UHGV virus genome: UHGV-0197950
Strand: one strand, 5' to 3'
DNA length: 10,010 bases
Source: a virus
Shown here one piece after another: positions 1 to 9,698 of the stretch. Positions within the stretch are counted from its first letter, which is position 1; each line of letters starts with the position of its first letter. Made by a program: the position numbers and the translations under genes. The notes beneath the pieces are model-generated. The model did not search any database. It worked only from the letters and a program-made list of their open reading frames with translations, and had not been told where the DNA came from.

Positions 1-217
1 GCTTCGACATCCTTCGCAAATCTTATACAAGTAAGATGGAATAAACCGGGGTCAGAGAGGGGGCTGTTCAAAACCTCGCCAACTCTAGAAATACAATTTA
101 GAGAATTAGGGCGAGCCGTCAAGCGTTTGACAGGGGCCAGGGGGCAGGTATGAATCAAAAATTTGAAGCAGTTAACGCTATTGACAGGAATGTGACAGAT
201 GTCGCTGATGCCAACGA

Positions 218-243: not shown

Positions 244-332
244 GTTCGCGGGTGTTCGTGGTAGTGTTTTGTGTGCATTCATCGCTATGATTATAAAGGA
301 AAATTTTGTTTTCCTTGTTCGCTCTTGTTCGT
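244..332 (+). repeat. Four direct copies of TGTTCG(C/T) in two tandem pairs (244-259 and 314-332); candidate integrase arm-type or regulator-binding sites
   Basis: gtgttcgcgggtgttcgtg at 243-260 and ttgttcgctcttgttcgtc at 313-333; also GGTGTAGT twice at 358-377. Binding function is inferred. Confidence 0.3.
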
Positions 333-2623: not shown

Positions 2624-2929
2624 CTATTCCTGCTCTTTGACCTTGCGTCGCTGGAGTTCTTCACGCGCGACGGTGACGAGTTGCCCGATCTCCTCGGCGG
2701 CTTTGACTCCGATTTTTTCCACCTGCGCTAGGGCATCGAGCGAAGAAACCAGGAGGTTTTCTCCGCTTCCTTCTGCCTGGCGGCGGGCGATTTCACCGCG
2801 CATGGCGGTTACTATGAATCCGGCGTTGCTTTCACCGTCCAGTTTTACGGATTCCATGCCTTCAATAACATCATGCGGGATCCGAGCTGTCAGTGATTGT
2901 GATTTTGCGTTTTTTGAACCTGTAGCCAT
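2624..2929 (-). CDS. Putative ribbon-helix-helix-type DNA-binding repressor (candidate island immunity/maintenance regulator)
   Basis: 101 aa from ATG (minus) at 2929 with SD GAGAGGA 6 nt upstream: MATGSKNAKSQSLTARIPHDVIEGMESVKLDGESNAGFIVTAMRGEIARRQ..., i.e. an N-terminal beta-strand/helix pattern typical of RHH (Arc/CopG-like) proteins and a charged helical C-terminus. The track start at 2944 is a TTG. Divergent from a region with two palindromic operators. Family assignment is by pattern only. Confidence 0.55.
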   Translation of the reverse strand: MATGSKNAKSQSLTARIPHDVIEGMESVKLDGESNAGFIVTAMRGEIARRQAEGSGENLLVSSLDALAQVEKIGVKAAEEIGQLVTVAREELQRRKVKEQE

Positions 2930-2950
2930 CTGTAATCCTCTCAATGAAAG

Positions 2951-3027
2951 TGTAAGACAATATACACATAAAAAGTCTTACATAAAAGCATTGACATGTA
3001 AGCCACCTATAAATAAAGTTGCTTACA
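2951..3027. promoter_or_regulatory. Divergent control region with two palindromic operators (TGTAAGAC-N16-GTCTTACA and TGTAAGC-N17-GCTTACA) overlapping a TTGACA -35 element
   Basis: Read directly: 2951-2958 tgtaagac / 2975-2982 gtcttaca; 2997-2003 tgtaagc / 3021-3027 gcttaca; TTGACA at 2991-2996 with a -10-like TAAAGT 17 nt downstream (3014-3019) reading towards the + strand gene at 3126. Confidence 0.55.
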
Positions 3028-3125: not shown

Positions 3126-3329
3126 ATGAGAAATCATACCATACACCCGCAAGGGCGGGACTCGTACAACCTGAATAAATACATCTGGCGTTTTATCGCC
3201 CTGAGCACCGCACAACCGCGCGTGATTCACATCGTGGCCACCAGCGAACAGGAAGCACGCCAGCAATCCCCGGCTGGCTGCGTGATGGTATTCGCCGCCC
3301 GTATTCGTCAGGGGGTGTGCCATGCCTGA
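3126..3329 (+). CDS. Small hypothetical protein (67 aa); first gene of the rightward operon; possibly an Icd-like cell-division-inhibitor-family protein
   Basis: ATG 3126 with GAGG SD 5 nt upstream, in frame with the end of the long 2283-3329 ORF: MRNHTIHPQGRDSYNLNKYIWRFIALSTAQPRVIHIVATSEQEARQQSPAGCVMVFAARIRQGVCHA. The Icd-like label is a recollection, not verified. Confidence 0.45.
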   Translation: MRNHTIHPQGRDSYNLNKYIWRFIALSTAQPRVIHIVATSEQEARQQSPAGCVMVFAARIRQGVCHA

Positions 3330-3648: not shown

Positions 3649-3948
3649 ATGAGAACGTATTTATCTGGCTTGACTGCCAGCGGTTATGCACACCCCCAAA
3701 TTATCCCCGGCGCTATTTATCTGGATAAGAACGGTAACAGAGTAACGGTAAAAGAACTGATGTTTGACCGTGTGTATTTTATCCGTGATGGCTATTCATT
3801 TCTTAGTTCGCTGAACGTGGAGATCTTTATTTGCAGATTCCGGCGGGAAATCCCGACTTCCAGAAATAACCATGTGTCACGTGTGGATGTGGATAAAAAA
3901 CTACAGGAACTGAAAAACATGATTGCCGCGTGGAGAGAGCAGAAATGA
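3649..3948 (+). CDS. Hypothetical protein (99 aa)
   Basis: ATG 3649 preceded by GGGGA. Its stop TGA 3946-3948 overlaps ATG 3945 of the replication gene (ATGA coupling). No motif recognised. Confidence 0.55.
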   Translation: MRTYLSGLTASGYAHPQIIPGAIYLDKNGNRVTVKELMFDRVYFIRDGYSFLSSLNVEIFICRFRREIPTSRNNHVSRVDVDKKLQELKNMIAAWREQK

Positions 3949-5762
3949 AAAAAGCGCCAAATTTAAAACACCAGCCGCGTGACAAAATGACGGAAGTCAT
4001 CATTTTTGCGGGTAGTGATGCGTGGGCACATGCGAAGCAGTGGCAGGAACAGGACGGGCGACTGGCTGGCGATAACGTGCCACCTGTCTGGCTTGGAGAG
4101 CAACAACTTGCCGAACTGGACAACCTGCAAATCGTACCGGACGGACGCTATCGCGTGCGTCTCTACCAGGCGGGGTTATTGCGTCCGGGGCTTGTTAATA
4201 CCATCGGGCAGAAACTGGCAGCGGCAGGTGTCAGGGATGCTGATTATTACCCTGAAGGAATGCACAGCCAGAAACGGGAGAACTGGCGCGAATATCTGGA
4301 ACGTGAACGGGCAGAGCAGGCGGAAAAGAAAAAGGTAGTTGAACTGCCTGTAAAGAAAAAAGAGCGGGTAAAAGACGATAACGCTTCATCACTGGCGCTT
4401 AACCAGATGGGAGCAAGTCAACGCGGCGAAGTTCTCCTGGCACATTATGGCGGTGAACTGGCGATTCATGCTGACTCTGACACTGTTCACCATTACAACG
4501 GCGTTGTATGGGAGCCAGTACAGGATAAAGAATTACAGCGAGCTATGGCACAGATTTTCATTGATGCGGAGATCAGCTATTCGCAGAACGCCATTAAATC
4601 GGCGGTCGATACCATGAAGTTAAGTTTGCCTGTTATGGGGAATACAGCCCGTAACCTGATTGGATTCAGTAACGGGGTATTTGATACCAGAACAGGTAAT
4701 TTTCGGGAGCATAACAAAAACGACTGGTTGTTAATTGCCAGTGAATTACCTTTCAGCCCACCAGCAGAGGGGGAAACGCTGGCAACACATGCGCCGAATT
4801 TCTGGAAGTGGTTACGCCGTTCGGTGGCTGAGAATGACCGCAAGGCGGATCGCGTACTGGCTGCATTATTCATGGTGCTGGCGAACCGGTACGACTGGCA
4901 GTTATTCATTGAGGTAACAGGTCCAGGGGGAAGTGGTAAAAGCGTGATGGCGGAGATTTGCACCATGCTGGCGGGTAAGGTTAATACAGTATCAGCGAGC
5001 ATGAAGGCGCTGGAAGATGCAAGGGAACGCGCGTTAGTGGTTGGCTTTTCGCTGATTATCATGCCGGATATGACCCGCTACGCTGGTGATGGGGCGGGAA
5101 TTAAGGCTATTACAGGCGGTGACAAGGTGGCAATCGACCCAAAACATAAAGCCCCATATTCAACGCGTATCCCGGCAGTAGTGCTGGCGGTTAACAATAA
5201 CGCTATGTCATTCAGTGACCGCAGTGGGGGGATCTCGCGACGTCGGGTGATATTCAATTTTTCGGAAGTTGTACCGGAGAACGAACGCGATTCAATGCTG
5301 GCGGAAAAAATAGAAGGTGAGCTGGCGGTAGTGATTCGTCATCTGCTTACACGGTTTGCTGACCAGGACGAAGCCAGACGCCTTTTATATGAGCAGCAGA
5401 AATCAGAAGAAGCACTCGCGATAAAGCGTGAAGGTGATTCGCTGGTGGACTTCTGCGGCTATCTCATGGCGTCGGTAATGTGTGATGGCCTGTTAGTGGG
5501 TAATGCTGAAATTGTGCCATTCAGCCCGCGCAGGTATCTCTATCATGCCTATCTGGCTTATATGAAGGCACATGGGTTTGGTAAACCTGTAACACTGACG
5601 CGCTTCGGTAAAGATATGCCGGGGGCAATGGCGGAATATGGCAGGGAGTATATGAAACGGAAAACGAAGCACGGTTTGCGTTCAAACGTGACACTGACGG
5701 AGGAATCAGAAGACTGGATGCCATCATGTGTATCGGTCACTAATGACGATAGCAAAAATTAA
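3945..5762 (+). CDS. Replication initiation protein, phage/plasmid primase-helicase family (P-loop NTPase; pri-rep-like)
   Basis: 605 aa from ATG 3945 (SD GGAGAGAG 3932-3939); the track start 3930 is a GTG. Walker A motif GPGGSGKS (EVTGPGGSGKSVMAE) and a downstream hydrophobic stretch plus acidic residues (LVVGFSLIIMPD) consistent with Walker B. Size and position immediately upstream of an iteron origin match satellite/PICI pri-rep genes. Confidence 0.8.
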   Translation: MKKAPNLKHQPRDKMTEVIIFAGSDAWAHAKQWQEQDGRLAGDNVPPVWLGEQQLAELDNLQIVPDGRYRVRLYQAGLLRPGLVNTIGQKLAAAGVRDADYYPEGMHSQKRENWREYLERERAEQAEKKKVVELPVKKKERVKDDNASSLALNQMGASQRGEVLLAHYGGELAIHADSDTVHHYNGVVWEPVQDKELQRAMAQIFIDAEISYSQNAIKSAVDTMKLSLPVMGNTARNLIGFSNGVFDTRTGNFREHNKNDWLLIASELPFSPPAEGETLATHAPNFWKWLRRSVAENDRKADRVLAALFMVLANRYDWQLFIEVTGPGGSGKSVMAEICTMLAGKVNTVSASMKALEDARERALVVGFSLIIMPDMTRYAGDGAGIKAITGGDKVAIDPKHKAPYSTRIPAVVLAVNNNAMSFSDRSGGISRRRVIFNFSEVVPENERDSMLAEKIEGELAVVIRHLLTRFADQDEARRLLYEQQKSEEALAIKREGDSLVDFCGYLMASVMCDGLLVGNAEIVPFSPRRYLYHAYLAYMKAHGFGKPVTLTRFGKDMPGAMAEYGREYMKRKTKHGLRSNVTLTEESEDWMPSCVSVTNDDSKN

Positions 5763-5776
5763 ACTTATGGAATAAC

Positions 5777-6006
5777 TGTTCACCACTGTTCACCCTGTCA
5801 TAAATATTTTTTATATCAGTATATTATAGGGTGAACAGTTATTTATGAACTGTTCACCAAACTATTCACTGTTCACCTTTTTGATTGTTTATTGAGCTTC
5901 AAGGGTGAACAGTGGTGAACAGTTGGTGAATAGTTTTTGTGAAACTGTTCACCCCTTAACATTATGAATTAAAAGATAAAATATCAAAAGGTGAACAGGT
6001 GAAGGG
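5777..6006. repeat. Iteron array / putative replication origin: about 10 copies of TGTTCACC (both orientations) flanking an AT-rich stretch
   Basis: TGTTCACC at 5777, 5787, 5851, 5870, 5946; GGTGAACA at 5830, 5904, 5914, 5990; degenerate copies at 5861, 5925, 5998; AT-rich 5795-5828. Lies immediately after the replication gene stop (5762). Confidence 0.75.
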
Positions 6007-6049
6007 TTAAAACGCAAAAATTTTAATTTACTGCTGTGAGATAAAGCCT

Positions 6050-6295
6050 ATGACAGCGAAGCACATAAAAAAATCACAATCGCACGCCCTTGATTTGACG
6101 GAACACTGGTTAAGGGTGTCGATAAAAATCATCGACCGCAACGCCGGGGAAGGATATGCGAAAGCACATCCCGAACTGATTAGCGCATTCATGACAACGG
6201 CAGCTGCAAACTTTGCCACGCTGACAGAACGGGAGATTGCCGAAGCGGAACAGGTGACAACCATCAACGTTAAAACCGGAGAGCAGACAGCATGA
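6050..6295 (+). CDS. Hypothetical protein (81 aa), translationally coupled to ssb
   Basis: ATG 6050; stop TGA 6293-6295 overlaps ssb ATG 6292 (ATGA). No motif recognised. Confidence 0.5.
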   Translation: MTAKHIKKSQSHALDLTEHWLRVSIKIIDRNAGEGYAKAHPELISAFMTTAAANFATLTEREIAEAEQVTTINVKTGEQTA

Positions 6296-6714
6296 CAGCA
6301 CAGATAGCGGCTTACGGACGGCTGGTGGCTGATCCGCAGTTAAAGACCACCAGCAAGGGTACACAAATGGCGATGGCTAGTATGGCGGTCCCCCTTCCGT
6401 GCAGCCAGGCAGATGACGGAACGGCGATGATGTGGTTATCCGTCCTGGCGTTTGGCAGACAGGCCGACGCACTGGCAAAACACCACAAAGGCGAACTGGT
6501 GAGCGTGGCGGGTAACATGCAGGTAAGCCAGTGGACAGGCCAGAACGGCGAAACGCGGCAGGGCTGGCAGGTTATCGCAGACAGCGTGATCAGTGCGCGA
6601 ACAGCGCGACCGGGCGGCAAAAAAGGCCAGCAGGGGCAGGCCACTGACGCACTGAACAGGGCAAAACAACAGTCGGGGAATGATGATCCGTACGGCGATA
6701 ATATACCGTTTTAA
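6292..6714 (+). CDS. ssb: Single-stranded DNA-binding protein (SSB-like, OB-fold) with acidic C-terminal tip ...DDPYGDNIPF
   Basis: 140 aa; N-terminal region follows the E. coli SSB pattern (IAAYGRLVADPQLKTTSKG... / WLSVLAFGRQADALAKHHKGELVSVAGNMQVSQWTGQNGETRQGWQVIADSV), a Gly/Gln-rich linker, and a C-terminal IPF tail resembling SSB DDDIPF. Confidence 0.8.
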   Translation: MTAQIAAYGRLVADPQLKTTSKGTQMAMASMAVPLPCSQADDGTAMMWLSVLAFGRQADALAKHHKGELVSVAGNMQVSQWTGQNGETRQGWQVIADSVISARTARPGGKKGQQGQATDALNRAKQQSGNDDPYGDNIPF

Positions 6715-6760: not shown

Positions 6761-6925
6761 GCTACATAAATCCCGACCAAAGGAAGTAAATACATTAACA
6801 CGAATTATCAGCACTGAAGTTGTCGCGGCATATTTTATACAACATTGCACTTGGTTGCATGTATTCGCATAGCAGACATCGGTAATAGAATATATTCACA
6901 ATTATTTGTAATGAATGTAAAGAGG

Positions 6926-7972
6926 ATGAGTATGGTTGACTTATATTCGCCTACACAGCTTGTGCAGGTGGCTAATGCTGAAGATGTGCAAAAAAAATTA
7001 AATGCGTTGTTTACCAGTTTGTTTTTCACTCGCTCGGTAATGTTTGAATCGAGAGACATTATTCTTGATACGATCGACGATCCAAATATCCCGATCGCGG
7101 CGTTTTGCTCTCCTATGGTGGGCAGTAAAGTTTCACGAGATGAGGGATACGAATCAAAAACAATTCGCCCTGGCTATATGAAACCGAAAAGCAGCATTGA
7201 TCCAAATAAGTTAGCTGTGCGCCCTGCTGGTGTATCACCTGAGCAATACAATGCTTTTGGAGCGCGTAATATTAAAGTTAAACAGGCGATTGTAAATCAG
7301 GCTAAAGCTATTCGTGCACGTATTGAATGGCTTGCCGTTCAGGCAATCACAACGGGGAAAAATATCATTGAGGGCGATGGTATTGAACGTTATGAGCTGG
7401 ACTGGAATATTAAACCACAAAATATCATCACTCAGTCTGGCGGTGCTGAGTGGTCAGGTAAGGATAAAGAAGCTTTTGATCCAAATGATGATATTGAGAG
7501 CTACGCAGAATTTAGTGAGGGCGTCACTAATATTATCATTATGGGCGGTAATGTATGGAAGAAATACCGTTCATTCAGGGCGATAAAAGAGGCTCTGGAT
7601 ACTCGTCGTGGTTCTAATTCCGAACTGGAAACGGCCCTTAAAGACCTTGGTGATTCGGTGAGTTTTAAAGGGTATATGGGCGATGTTGCGATTGTTGTTT
7701 ACAGCGGGCGTTATACCGACGAGGACGGAACTGAAAAATATTTCCTTGATCCTGATTTGATGGTGCTTGGCAATACGGCTCTTCAGGGGATTGTCGCTTA
7801 TGGCGGTATTCAGGATCCGGAGCTAATCCGGATGGGGCTGACTAAAGCCGAACTTGCACCGAAAAACTATATTGTGCCTGGTGATCCGGCTATTGAATAT
7901 GTGCAGACACATTCAGCACCACAGCCAATACCGGCCCGCATCAATCGTTTTGTTACCGTTCGCATTGGCTAA
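6926..7972 (+). CDS. Major capsid protein, phage lambda gpE family
   Basis: Begins MSMVDLYSPTQLV (lambda gpE begins MSMYTTAQLL) and shares long blocks with gpE as recalled: NIITQSGGAEWSGKDKEAFDPNDDIESYA, LDTRRGSNSELETALKDLG, GDVAIVVYSG, MVLGNT, PGDPA. Start may be ATG 6926 or 6932 (AGAGG abuts 6926). Stop TAA 7970-7972. Confidence 0.9.
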   Translation: MSMVDLYSPTQLVQVANAEDVQKKLNALFTSLFFTRSVMFESRDIILDTIDDPNIPIAAFCSPMVGSKVSRDEGYESKTIRPGYMKPKSSIDPNKLAVRPAGVSPEQYNAFGARNIKVKQAIVNQAKAIRARIEWLAVQAITTGKNIIEGDGIERYELDWNIKPQNIITQSGGAEWSGKDKEAFDPNDDIESYAEFSEGVTNIIIMGGNVWKKYRSFRAIKEALDTRRGSNSELETALKDLGDSVSFKGYMGDVAIVVYSGRYTDEDGTEKYFLDPDLMVLGNTALQGIVAYGGIQDPELIRMGLTKAELAPKNYIVPGDPAIEYVQTHSAPQPIPARINRFVTVRIG

Positions 7973-7981
7973 GGGGGAGCA

Positions 7982-8323
7982 ATGGCTACTCATTACACTG
8001 AACTCATGTCTGGCACTGAAGCACTGGTTACTACGCTGGGGATATTTTCAGCCAATAAAGGGGTAATACCTGCGTTTACGCCACTGATGCAGGAAGATGC
8101 AACTGGTGCGCTAGTGGTATGGGATGGAACGAGCGCAGGCAAAGCGGTTTATGTTTCCGCTGTACAAATCGACACAGCGAAAAAAACACAGGCACAGGTT
8201 TATAAGACAGGTGTTTTAAATGTTGATGCTCTGAACTGGCCTGAGTCTGTAAAAGAACTGTCGGCAAAGGTTGCCGCGTTTGTTGGCTCAGGTATTTCTG
8301 TTCAGCCGCTGGCTCGTGTGTAA
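7982..8323 (+). CDS. Head decoration protein, phage lambda gpD family
   Basis: 113 aa with SD AAGGGGGAG; motifs shared with gpD as recalled: TPLM, LVVWDGT, YKTG, WPE, AAFVGSGISV. Lies immediately downstream of the capsid gene (order E then D, reversed relative to lambda). Confidence 0.8.
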   Translation: MATHYTELMSGTEALVTTLGIFSANKGVIPAFTPLMQEDATGALVVWDGTSAGKAVYVSAVQIDTAKKTQAQVYKTGVLNVDALNWPESVKELSAKVAAFVGSGISVQPLARV

Positions 8324-8334
8324 AGGGGGATACA

Positions 8335-8718
8335 ATGCAGAATCATTACAATGACCTTAAGCCAATTGCCGAAATGATGTATCCGGATCCAGCAGTAGAG
8401 GAATTAAAGGCTATTGCTGACAAAATGCGTTTAAGTGAACGCCTTGTTGATATGAATCAGGTGATGGAACTTACTACCCTTAGCCGTCGCACATTGCTAA
8501 ACCTTGAGGCTCGCGGAGAGTTCCCCGAACGCGTACAGGTTACGGAAGGGCGTAAGGCCTGGTATTTAAGTGAAGTGATCGACTGGATAAACAATATTCC
8601 TCGAGCTTCTGAATATTGCCGCGTACCTGTCCCAAAAAAGCCAGATGCGGCGCTATGCCTCAAGATTGAGCGTGTACGTCGCAATGCACGGGATGGTCGC
8701 TATAAGTTGATTGGTTGA
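8335..8718 (+). CDS. AlpA-type HTH DNA-binding protein with N-terminal extension (127 aa); candidate late/packaging regulator
   Basis: SD AAAGGGGGA; C-terminal half has an AlpA-like HTH (MELTTLSRRTLLNLEARGEFPERVQVTEGRKAWYLSEVIDWINN). Sits between the decoration gene and cos. Confidence 0.7.
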   Translation: MQNHYNDLKPIAEMMYPDPAVEELKAIADKMRLSERLVDMNQVMELTTLSRRTLLNLEARGEFPERVQVTEGRKAWYLSEVIDWINNIPRASEYCRVPVPKKPDAALCLKIERVRRNARDGRYKLIG

Positions 8719-8741
8719 TGAAATTAGGGCCCGTTCTGGCT

Positions 8742-8810
8742 GGCGGGTCCTTTCCGGCGATCCGGTAGGCTACGGGGCGGCGACCTCGCGGTTTTTCGCT
8801 ATTTATGAGC
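8742..8810. other. Lambda-type cohesive-end site (cosQ/cosN region); cosN 12-nt GGGCGGCGACCT at 8775-8786
   Basis: Island GGCGGGTCCTTTCCGGCGATCCGGTAGGCTACG|GGGCGGCGACCT|CGCGGTTTTTCGCTATTTATGAG versus lambda right end ...CGGGTCCTTTCCGGTGATCCGACAGGTTACG and left end GGGCGGCGACCTCGCGGGTTTTCGCTATTTATGAA as recalled. Identity falls away after about +35, so the cosB region is different. About 145 bp upstream of a Nu1-like gene, as in lambda. Confidence 0.8.
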
Positions 8811-8818
8811 TTTTTCAG

Positions 8819-8833
8819 GGTGGTGGTGGTGGT
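8819..8833. repeat. (GGT)5 trinucleotide tract followed by TTTGTTGTTTG, inside the cosB-equivalent region
   Basis: Read directly: ggtggtggtggtggt at 8819-8833. Downstream are ACACCAACACACCAACC repeats (8877-8893), loosely complementary in composition. Confidence 0.6.
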
Positions 8834-8919
8834 TTTGTTGTTTGCTCTATCTCCATGAATAAAAAGGGAAAGATAACACCAACACACCAACCTGAAACCT
8901 TGACCAAGTTGGGATATTG

Positions 8920-9462
8920 ATGAAATCGCACCTGATGAACAAAAAAACCATGGCGCAAAGCTGCCGGGTAAGTGCTACAGCATTCGACAAGTGGGGAGTG
9001 ACTCCCGTTGAACGTAAAGGCCGTGAGGCGTTTTATGATGTTGCCAGCGTGATAGACAATAGGGTTAACAATGCAATTAGCCAGCTTACAAACGACAAAG
9101 GCGAGATTGATGATGATGAACTCTTACGAGTCAGGATCAGATTACTGACAGCACAGGCGGAGGCGCAGGAACTTAAAAACGAGCGCGATCGCGGTGACGT
9201 GATTGATACAGAGTTTTGCATGTACGCGCTTTCAAAACTGGCGAGTCAGATTTCATCAATCATGGACAGCCTCCCGCTTACTATGCAAAGGAGCTTCCCA
9301 CAGATGACCCCCGTCATGCTGGATGGCCTGAAAAAAGAAGTTGTCAGAGCCTGTAACGCATGCACAAAACTTGATGAAAACATCCCGCGAATGCTGTCCG
9401 ATTATCTGATGGAAACTACCGGAAATGTGCCTGATAAGTTTCAGCCGGATAAAGACAAGTAA
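8920..9462 (+). CDS. Terminase small subunit, lambda Nu1-like
   Basis: Product aligns by eye with lambda Nu1: N-terminus ...NKKTMAQSCRVSATAFDKWGVTPVERKGREAFYDVASVI versus NKKQLADIFGASIRTIQNWQEQGMPVLRGGGKGNEVLYDSAAVI; C-terminal part RLLTAQAEAQELKNERDRGDVIDTEFCMYALSKLASQISSIMDSLPLTMQRSFPQ versus RLTRAQADAQELKNARDSAEVVETAFCTFVLSRIAGEIASILDGLPLSVQRRFPE. Start ambiguous (TTG 8917, ATG 8920, ATG 8935). No TerL gene follows. Confidence 0.85.
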   Translation: MKSHLMNKKTMAQSCRVSATAFDKWGVTPVERKGREAFYDVASVIDNRVNNAISQLTNDKGEIDDDELLRVRIRLLTAQAEAQELKNERDRGDVIDTEFCMYALSKLASQISSIMDSLPLTMQRSFPQMTPVMLDGLKKEVVRACNACTKLDENIPRMLSDYLMETTGNVPDKFQPDKDK

Positions 9463-9502: not shown

Positions 9503-9698
9503 TCAGCGTTGCGCTGGTGGGCGTTATGCGTCAGTGATGAACAAAAAACAATCGAAATCGACACCGAAAAATAAAACATCAAGTCATATCAATATATTGC
9601 ATTGGTGGTGATGACGAATAAAAATGCAAAAACTAGCCTTTTTCCGCGATGCTCCCGCCCCGTGGCAGGGCACCCCACAAGGAGGACCCGCCATCACT

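Follow-up and report, generated by a model that had tools for sequence, protein, structure and literature searches.

UHGV-0197950 is a viral genome of 10,010 nucleotides (the window) and, judged by gene content from Pfam hits and the list of open reading frames (ORFs), it is a satellite of approximately 10 kb of the phage-inducible chromosomal island (PICI) type. Within it a lambda-like cohesive-end site, cos, is followed by a gene for a Nu1-family small terminase subunit (TerS). Having compared both with their relatives, we consider it probable that positions 8787-8916 are the cosB of a Gram-negative PICI with its own full-length TerS, and that this TerS would be the protein that binds there. 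An island-specific cosB is already known from EcCICFT073, the model Gram-negative PICI; new here is the GGT-type variant accompanied by a full-length Nu1-type TerS. Throughout, cos is numbered from the first base of the cohesive end, such that bp 1 is position 8775.

A GGT tract at the position of R3

The left part of the site resembles that of lambda. The cohesive end of cosN, GGGCGGCGACCT (8775-8786, bp 1-12, + strand), is identical to bp 1-12 of lambda, is flanked by ACG and CGC and, in relatives, keeps a constant distance to terS. The 30-mer GGGTCCTTTCCGGCGATCCGGTAGGCTACG upstream of it (8745-8774, + strand), which matches the last 30 bases of a lambda-type cos, contains cosQ, with GGGTCCT at 8745-8751 followed by the spacer to the left nick. 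The predicted cosQ element as a whole, GGGTCCTTTCCGG at 8745-8757, matches the cos of the lambda-like helper prophage in strain AST216 (L133), which has GGGTCCTTTCCGGCGATCCGACAGGTTACG at the corresponding segment, and is kept across the island family. Between cosN and cosB (8787-8810, bp 13-36, + strand) the window is identical to a Monarch-like prophage at 23/24 positions and to lambda at 21/24. From approximately bp 35 the similarity to lambda fades, and it is gone where lambda R3 starts: compared position by position, identity is 12/12 at bp 1-12, 8/13 at bp 37-49, 11/21 at bp 50-70, 14/39 at bp 71-109 and 4/13 at bp 110-122. This drop bears out the original prediction that the sequence leaves lambda where R3, I1 and R2 lie.

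What stands at the position of R3 is a trinucleotide repeat. The (GGT)5 tract lies at 8819-8833 (Tandem Repeats Finder), exactly where the original prediction had placed it, is the only one in the window and would be expected 0.01 times in shuffled sequence. It takes up bp 45-59 and is followed by TTTTGTTGT at bp 60-68; together, (GGT)5 and the TTTGTTGTT that follows form a candidate TerS element equivalent to R3 (8819-8842, bp 45-68, + strand), with a constrained core, TGGTGGTGGTTTTGTTGTT, at bp 50-68. The GGT tract with TTTTGTTGTT occupies the R3 position of both lambda and N15 and is the best-conserved intergenic block among approximately 58 distinct relatives. R3 of lambda spans bp 50-65, of which bp 55-63 are contacted by TerS, and R3 of N15 spans bp 48-59/60; in N15, scrambling of bp 54-59 (GTTGTT) reduces the yield approximately 100-fold (PMC9026076, PMC4669245). 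At bp 51-59 the + strand of the window reads GGTGGTGGT, for which the N15/Monarch counterpart is GGTTGTTGT, and on this alignment the GGT tract is a variant of the N15/Monarch R3 in which G replaces T. The N15/Monarch core itself, GGTTGTTGT(T), is absent from bp 50-60, as bp 55 and bp 58, both within the critical bp 54-59, are G and not T.

Conservation across the region is uneven. Among the 57 distinct relatives without insertions or deletions (indels), out of 58 distinct variants, the three longest runs in which no common polymorphism occurs span bp 19-36, bp 51-65 (GGTGGTGGTTTTGTT) and bp 110-122 (ACACCAACCTGAA), and the three run lengths together were reached in 0/20,000 column shuffles. 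Polymorphism is concentrated at bp 42-50, which covers the first one or two GGT units, at bp 100-108 and at bp 123-145. The 5' units vary by substitution (GGGTGG, GGGTGC, GGGGAC, GGGGGG and GGTTGG at bp 42-50), and from the pattern of polymorphism constraint appears limited to the three 3' GGT units and TTTTGTTGTT. In the relatives the conserved block at bp 51-65, with its extended core at bp 50-68, sits at a fixed spacing from cosN. A far more distant member, the IMG/VR island L338, the only one seen outside E. coli, retains 20/21 positions at bp 50-70 and 12/13 at bp 110-122, and the flanking spacers only 7/13 and 17/39; its TerS is approximately 55-60% identical to that of the window (33/50 and 31/49 in the N-terminal half, lower beyond). 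We first read L338 as a phage with this cosB and rejected that reading, since its neighbouring genes are decoration-like and AlpA-like and no large terminase gene follows terS; it is another island.

The 5' substitutions have a further effect, for in some members they create an exact Chi octamer (GCTGGTGG) within the R3 region: GGGTGCTGGTGG, GGGGGCTGGTGG and GCTGCTGGTGG, in L010-type and L032-type members and L338, at the position of window 8819-8828. Other family members are one base away from Chi at this place (ACTGGTGG, GTTGGTGG and GGTGGTGG). A coding origin of the repeat was also considered, as ORF 8711-8920 would translate (GGT)5 as five glycines. We rejected it given that the ORF spans cosN, and that O157-type islands exchange its upstream half for unrelated sequence, the indels of which are not multiples of three.

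The original prediction held that the tract could change length by slipped-strand mispairing and called for repeat copy number to be compared among related elements. In that comparison the length proved to be fixed in nearly all relatives. Of 80 IMG/VR loci, nearly all have 160 bp between cosN and the ATG at 8935; 43/44 matches to a variable-gap pattern are of identical length; 1/58 distinct variants has an indel, a 3-bp deletion; and 12/12 E. coli genome matches, sampled evenly down the ranking, align 130:130. Close relatives thus lack the repeat-number polymorphism by which a contingency locus is recognised. The GGT repeat is very probably a fixed element, predicted from its conservation to be one for binding, and not a variable microsatellite. 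The only natural length variant that we found is L065/L118 (IMGVR_UViG_2740892112_000004), in which one GGT unit is gone and the R3 core is 3 bp nearer cosN.

A second conserved block lies at the position of R2. The tandem ACACCAAC repeats of the original prediction are present, at 8876-8883 and 8884-8891 with a C at 8892, and had been placed one base too far to the right, at 8877-8893; 0.28 copies would be expected, and two copies arose in 5/200 shuffles. The two copies differ in their fate. The first belongs to an A-rich spacer (8845-8883, + strand) that is polymorphic in the family, coincides with the hot segment at bp 100-108 and, as judged from the relatives, is lineage-specific and not conserved. 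The second begins the R2-like inverted element ACACCAACCTGAA (8884-8896, - strand), the reverse complement of which has GGTTGGTGT at bp 110-118; these 13 bp are strictly invariant in the 57 distinct relatives. This copy (bp 110-118, with CCTGAA) has the same coordinates and strand as an exact inverted GGTTGTTGT in a prophage of E. coli strain 144 (L084), and by alignment it is the positional counterpart of an inverted R2. Since terS starts at bp 146, the window has no R1. The R3 core also forms inverted repeats with 8938-8950, which we rejected, as they stem from N-K-K codons at the N-terminus of TerS that are found in lambda Nu1 too.

The island TerS and its recognition helix

The gene downstream of cos encodes a TerS (8920-9462, + strand) and is followed by a small ORF. 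RefSeq places the start at 8920 (bp 146); the N-terminus of Nu1 aligns with an alternative start, the ATG at 8935. The protein matches Pfam Phage_Nu1 (E = 1e-22) and is annotated in RefSeq as a terminase small subunit. Its closest counterpart in phage records is N15 gp1 (47% identical), lambda Nu1 being 37% identical (tblastn). The DNA-binding domain is identical to that of N15 at 27/45 positions and to that of lambda at 17/45, and it shares the two deletions of N15 relative to lambda. A phmmer search of the PDB with the TerS gave no meaningful match and found neither 6HLK nor the Rpp chain of 6HN7; a TerS family profile reaches 1J9I and 6HN7 chain B, a partly circular result as the profile includes lambda Nu1.

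Across the family the DNA-binding domain is nearly invariant, and the recognition helix is VSATAFDKW in 123/123 island TerS proteins. This helix is not the ISVQAFDKW of N15 and Monarch, even though the rest of the domain is of the N15 class. When helix class was compared with the type of R3 over 300 cos-terS or cos-rpp loci, each class was found with its own sequence at the R3 position: VSATAFDKW with TGGTGGTGG (core TGGTGGTGGTTTTGTTGTT) in the island family of the window, ISVQAFDKW with GGTTGTTGT (GGTTGTTGTTT) in N15 and Monarch-like phages, xSxRTIQNW with CGTTTCCG (CGTTTCCGTTCTTCTT) in lambda-like phages, VDPRTIERW with TCGTGTCGG (ATCGTGTCGG) in the phage 21 type, and VNRTTIRAW or VDRTTVRAW with ACCACCACC (ACACCACCACCAC) in Rpp islands. 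Such a pairing is the pattern expected of cognate pairs and, as only a few deep lineages underlie it, lends support short of proof. The original prediction had proposed the GGT tract and the ACACCAAC repeats as recognition elements for the island TerS. For the tract this gains support, as it stands at the R3 position, is conserved, is related to N15 and tracks the helix class; of the repeats, the conserved, R2-like second copy fits the proposal and the lineage-specific first copy does not.

The opposite end of the protein behaves differently. The last approximately 40 residues (window 9340-9462) are the most variable part of TerS, with 21/40 identities between the window and the O157 island as against 42/45 in the DNA-binding domain, and their equivalent in Nu1 is the region that binds the large terminase. 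Several types of tail occur in shuffled combinations with the variants of cosN and cosB, and the variation could reflect adaptation to different helpers. The cohesive end also varies: relatives L009, L014, L016, L028, L034, L042-L051 and L133, in which cosB and the DNA-binding domain of TerS are the same, have GGGCGGAAGGCG, GGGCGTCAGGCG, GGGCGGCAGACG or GGGCGGCTGACG at the position of cosN.

Proposed packaging mechanism and alternative explanations

Based on these observations, we propose the following model. A dimer of the island TerS would bind DNA through its N15-class winged helix-turn-helix (HTH), which carries the recognition helix VSATAFDKW. Its main site would be the R3 equivalent formed by the 3' GGT tract and TTTTGTTGTT (bp 50-68), and it would probably bind the inverted R2-like site ACACCAACC (bp 110-118) as well. 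The C-terminal tail of TerS would recruit the large terminase of the helper to cosN, which is identical to that of lambda, and termination would rely on the lambda-like cosQ. Because R3 and R2 of the island differ from the sites of lambda, phage 21 and N15/Monarch, its packaging specificity is predicted to be orthogonal to that of a lambda-type helper, with the helper TerS blind to the cosB of the island and the island TerS blind to that of the helper.

The arrangement in strain AST216 is the one expected if the packaging specificity of the island is orthogonal to that of its helper. A window-type island (L133, 11392-23150) is inserted there in capsid gene E of a lambda-like prophage. That prophage encodes a lambda-like Nu1 and possesses a cos of its own, in which R3, R2 and R1 are of the lambda type; the GGT-type cosB of the island lies 15 kb away. 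Such embedding of related copies is the only, and indirect, sign that a helper phage may induce and transfer the island. The cosN of this island is GGGCGTCAGGCG, as opposed to GGGCGGCGACCT in the surrounding prophage. Helper-embedded PICIs have been described previously, and the example in that work is said to lack terS (PMC10111431), whereas L133 has it. Several of the IMG/VR contigs that hold islands are 30-60 kb long because the island is embedded in a prophage.

A number of observations weigh against cosB with a cognate island TerS. The longest strictly invariant run is not significant by itself (P = 0.09). The R3 and R2-like elements agree at just 6/9 positions in the core register, and between them there is no IHF consensus, unlike in lambda and Monarch: WATCAANNNNTTR was found nowhere in 8787-8935 with one mismatch or fewer and nowhere in bp 61-112 with two or fewer. 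A 12/13 inverted repeat (8813-8825 with 8885-8897) might have been taken for an R3/R2 pair; we do not rely on it, since in relatives no part of the region is more polymorphic than its left arm. Since few deep lineages are involved, the association of helix and R3 may reflect shared ancestry and not co-adaptation. The C-terminal tail of TerS is approximately 25-40% identical to any phage TerS tail, such that direct binding of the large terminase is a prediction, and in the literature that we searched we found no experiment on binding or packaging with islands of this type.

Of the other explanations for the region, we think it unlikely that the island TerS acts in the manner of Rpp, which would mean that it hetero-oligomerises with the TerS of the helper and blocks helper packaging, that the mixed complex reads cosB and that the helper TerS is essential. 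Several facts speak for it: terS occupies the exact slot of rppA in EcCICFT073, the central oligomerisation region of the island protein is approximately 40% identical to lambda Nu1, in Rpp islands, too, R3 is a trinucleotide repeat (ACCACCACC) and has the same coordinates, and Rpp binds phage TerS, which is required for transfer of EcCICFT073 (PMC6739421). However, Rpp proteins are 135-153 aa long, with a lambda-like DNA-binding domain and no tail for binding the large terminase, and are encoded approximately 100 bp after cosN (PMC9026076), whereas the island TerS is 175-180 aa long, matches the Nu1 profile nearly to its end (profile positions 77-161 of 164) and keeps the tail pattern LK..KA.N...P..L..Y. 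Furthermore, it has no detectable similarity to RppA (BLASTP, E = 1.3), the DNA-binding domain of which aligns with lambda Nu1 (30% over 47 aa) and not with the TerS of the island or N15. We rate the Rpp-like mode below packaging by the island's own TerS because of its full length and Nu1 C-terminal region and because its sequence is unrelated to that of Rpp. Given how the RppA domain aligns, the two solutions look independent, and descent of Rpp from the island TerS is unsupported.

Given that 25-100 bp separate the conserved blocks from the start of terS downstream, and that the gene of an AlpA-family HTH protein adjoins the site, they might instead be signals for terS expression, such as an operator for the AlpA-like regulator or elements of the 5' untranslated region. 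This seems very unlikely to us, as a promoter and terminator scan of 8600-9100 found no sigma-70-like site and, as its sole terminator-like match, cosN itself, as O157-type islands in which an unrelated 137-aa ORF replaces the AlpA-like gene keep both the R3 and the R2 block, and as the blocks match R3 and R2 of phage cos in coordinates and strand. The phase-variable reading, in which slippage at a contingency microsatellite tunes packaging efficiency, is tempting for a perfect five-unit trinucleotide repeat of which one natural variant is a unit short, yet we hold it to be wrong and largely refuted: in addition to the constant lengths given above (57/58 variants among them), the 5' units differ by substitution, from GGT to GCT, GAC or GGG, and the spacing from cosN to R3 is critical, a change of 3 bp being severely deleterious in lambda (PMC9026076). 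We find it just as hard to credit that the region is a non-functional remnant, a decayed phage cosB in an island packaged through cosQ and cosN alone or by low-specificity binding of the helper terminase. Plasmids with the EcCICFT073 cos are indeed moved at reduced frequency by lambda and phi80 without the island protein (PMC6092414, PMC6739421), but the strongly heterogeneous conservation, with cold blocks exactly at the positions of R3 and R2, the intact cognate TerS gene retained in 481/5,426 genomes and the nearly invariant DNA-binding domain of its product all argue otherwise. Thus cosB with a cognate island TerS is the reading that we prefer.

More speculatively, and with more doubt than belief, we suggest that an orthogonal cosB evolved twice independently in satellites of E. 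coli, around one duplex motif used in both orientations, an N15-class, full-length TerS reading (GGT)n and a lambda-class, tail-less Rpp reading (ACC)n; the islands with a full TerS would be a self-sufficient module. If true, the DNA-binding domain and cosB would be frozen while the tail and the cohesive end of cosN were swapped to fit helpers, and such islands could be packaged without any helper TerS and would interfere by competing for the large terminase.

The island family and known packaging systems

The window carries, in order, an integrase (405-1643), a DUF4222 protein, a D5-type primase of 610 aa (3930-5762), SSB (6292-6714), a lambda E-like capsid protein (6845-7972), a lambda D-like decoration protein (7982-8323) and, directly upstream of cos, the AlpA-family HTH protein (8335-8718; Pfam PF05930; PDB 8C3T, E = 2e-10). 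A size of roughly 10-15 kb, an integrase, an alpA-type regulator, a primase module, few late genes, no large terminase and a specific integration site are the features by which Gram-negative PICIs are recognised, and the island has them all. In strain 2015C-3163 the same cos-terS segment occurs in an island between cspD/yljB and clpS; in O157:H7 a relative sits between roxA and phoQ, and EcCICFT073 has the same layout at the roxA/phoQ site, with rppA (144 aa) and not terS in the slot after cos. All of the 80 IMG/VR loci that encode a TerS of the window type are islands of the same architecture, and none of them has a large terminase gene after terS. GGT-type cosB is present in 481 of 5,426 complete E. 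coli genomes (approximately 9%), O157:H7 and O55:H7 included. Against 50,697 phage records, blastn matches were limited to window 8743-8820, and no record carries the full site. Searches of genome contigs yielded no relative with peptide-seeded TerS (75 seeds), and the exact 19-mer TGGTGGTGGTTTTGTTGTT gave 80 matches, all due to chance and in unrelated taxa.

Islands of the family are mosaic. The window differs at approximately 2664-3024 and 4366-6067 from L001, whose cos-terS segment matches it at 100%. In the replication module, the D5-type protein of 610 aa in the window has as its counterpart in strain 2015C-3163 a DUF927 protein of 707 aa, and the island of that strain has the same HTH gene before cos and an extra HTH regulator beside the integrase; in O157- and CFT073-type islands the position before cos is taken by an unrelated 137-aa ORF. 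A sister island in E. coli DS26-1 (L083, 2560-2760) has the same AlpA-like gene and the variant cosN GGGCGTCAGGCG, together with a lambda-type cosB (GCCGTTTCTGTTCTTCTTCG ... AGAAAGGAAATGG ... CCGTTTCCTTTCTCC) with no terS or rpp downstream. It seems to follow a third strategy, in which an island copies the cosB of its helper.

The window also contains eight exact Chi sites (GCTGGTGG), four on each strand, where shuffled sequences lead one to expect 0.3 and have a maximum of two: 517-524, 3238-3245, 4758-4765 and 6347-6354 on the - strand, and 2370-2377, 5441-5448, 6321-6328 and 9513-9520 on the + strand. The average Chi density of E. coli would give approximately two per 10 kb. As no Gam homologue was found, these sites might shield concatemers of the island DNA from RecBCD.

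Compared with known sites, the island cos shares with lambda the order of cosQ, cosN, an R3 at some 50 bp, an R2 in inverted orientation around bp 110 and terS, as well as the fold family of the TerS. It differs in its unrelated R sequences, in the lack of an I1 consensus and of R1 and in a DNA-binding domain far from that of Nu1. N15 is closer. Its cosB has a single R3, GAGGTTGTTGTT at bp 48-59, read by the TerS gp1; R3 is equally far from cosN in the two, both have a 3-periodic G/T element, and neither has a recognisable IHF site, N15 having none between R3 and R2 (PMC9026076). However, bp 54-59 are GTTGTT in N15 and GGTGGT in the island, and the helix is SVQAFDKW in the former and SATAFDKW in the latter. 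The N15 motif occurs at bp 50-58 (+) and again at bp 250-258 (-), the published remote rR2 in gene 1, whereas the R2-like element of the island is nearby, and N15 is a complete phage that encodes a large terminase, which the island does not.

The Monarch-type cosB, with the order R3-I1-R2-R1 and N15-like R sequences, is represented by L084. This prophage aligns with window 8743-8893, from cosQ through R2, at 83% identity, and its TerS gene is followed by that of a large terminase. It has exact copies of GGTTGTTGT at bp 51-59 (+), bp 110-118 (-) and bp 188-196 (+), and an IHF-like site separates the first from the second. The island thus has its R3 and inverted R2 at the same coordinates. In contrast to the three exact copies of L084, the island has GGTGGTGGT and GGTTGGTGT, it has not preserved R1 or the IHF-like TATCAATTAGATA, and it is a satellite without a large terminase gene.

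Among satellites, the staphylococcal pathogenicity islands (SaPIs) offer a parallel in that a satellite TerS redirects the large terminase of the helper to the satellite's own site (summarised in PMC6739421). They differ in headful packaging from pac, in an unrelated TerS family and in a separate interference protein (Ppi), whereas the island is of the cos type and its TerS is of the Nu1 family. Homologues of terS were noted in some Gram-negative PICIs in a 2018 survey (PMC6092414); we found no paper in the searched literature that dissects the cos of such islands. In cos1 of EcCICFT073 an island-specific cosB, along with a phage-like cosQ and cosN, is already known; it is read by Rpp together with phage TerS (PMC6739421), and its R3 was placed at bp 48-65 by Murialdo and Feiss (PMC9026076). 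Islands of the Rpp type have ACACCACCACCAC at bp 53-65, a repeat complementary to that of the GGT type. The two types share architecture, gene slot, lambda-like cosQ and cosN and a trinucleotide-repeat R3, but the top strand reads (ACC)n in the one and (GGT)n in the other, the ACACCACCACCAC core is absent from the window, rpp starts at bp 102 and terS at bp 146, and Rpp needs the helper TerS, which the island of the window may not.

Rpp is the only worked-out packaging hijack for cos-type Gram-negative PICIs. The island family found in approximately 9% of complete E. coli genomes appears to use another solution, its own Nu1-type TerS with a private cosB derived from the N15/Monarch type. The analysis provides a testable map of this solution, namely R3 at bp 50-68, R2 at bp 110-122 and the helix residues A-T as against V-Q in N15, which could be of use in studying how TerS specificity evolves, in finding the helpers that mobilise such islands and in building orthogonal cos/TerS pairs for DNA delivery by PICIs or cosmids.

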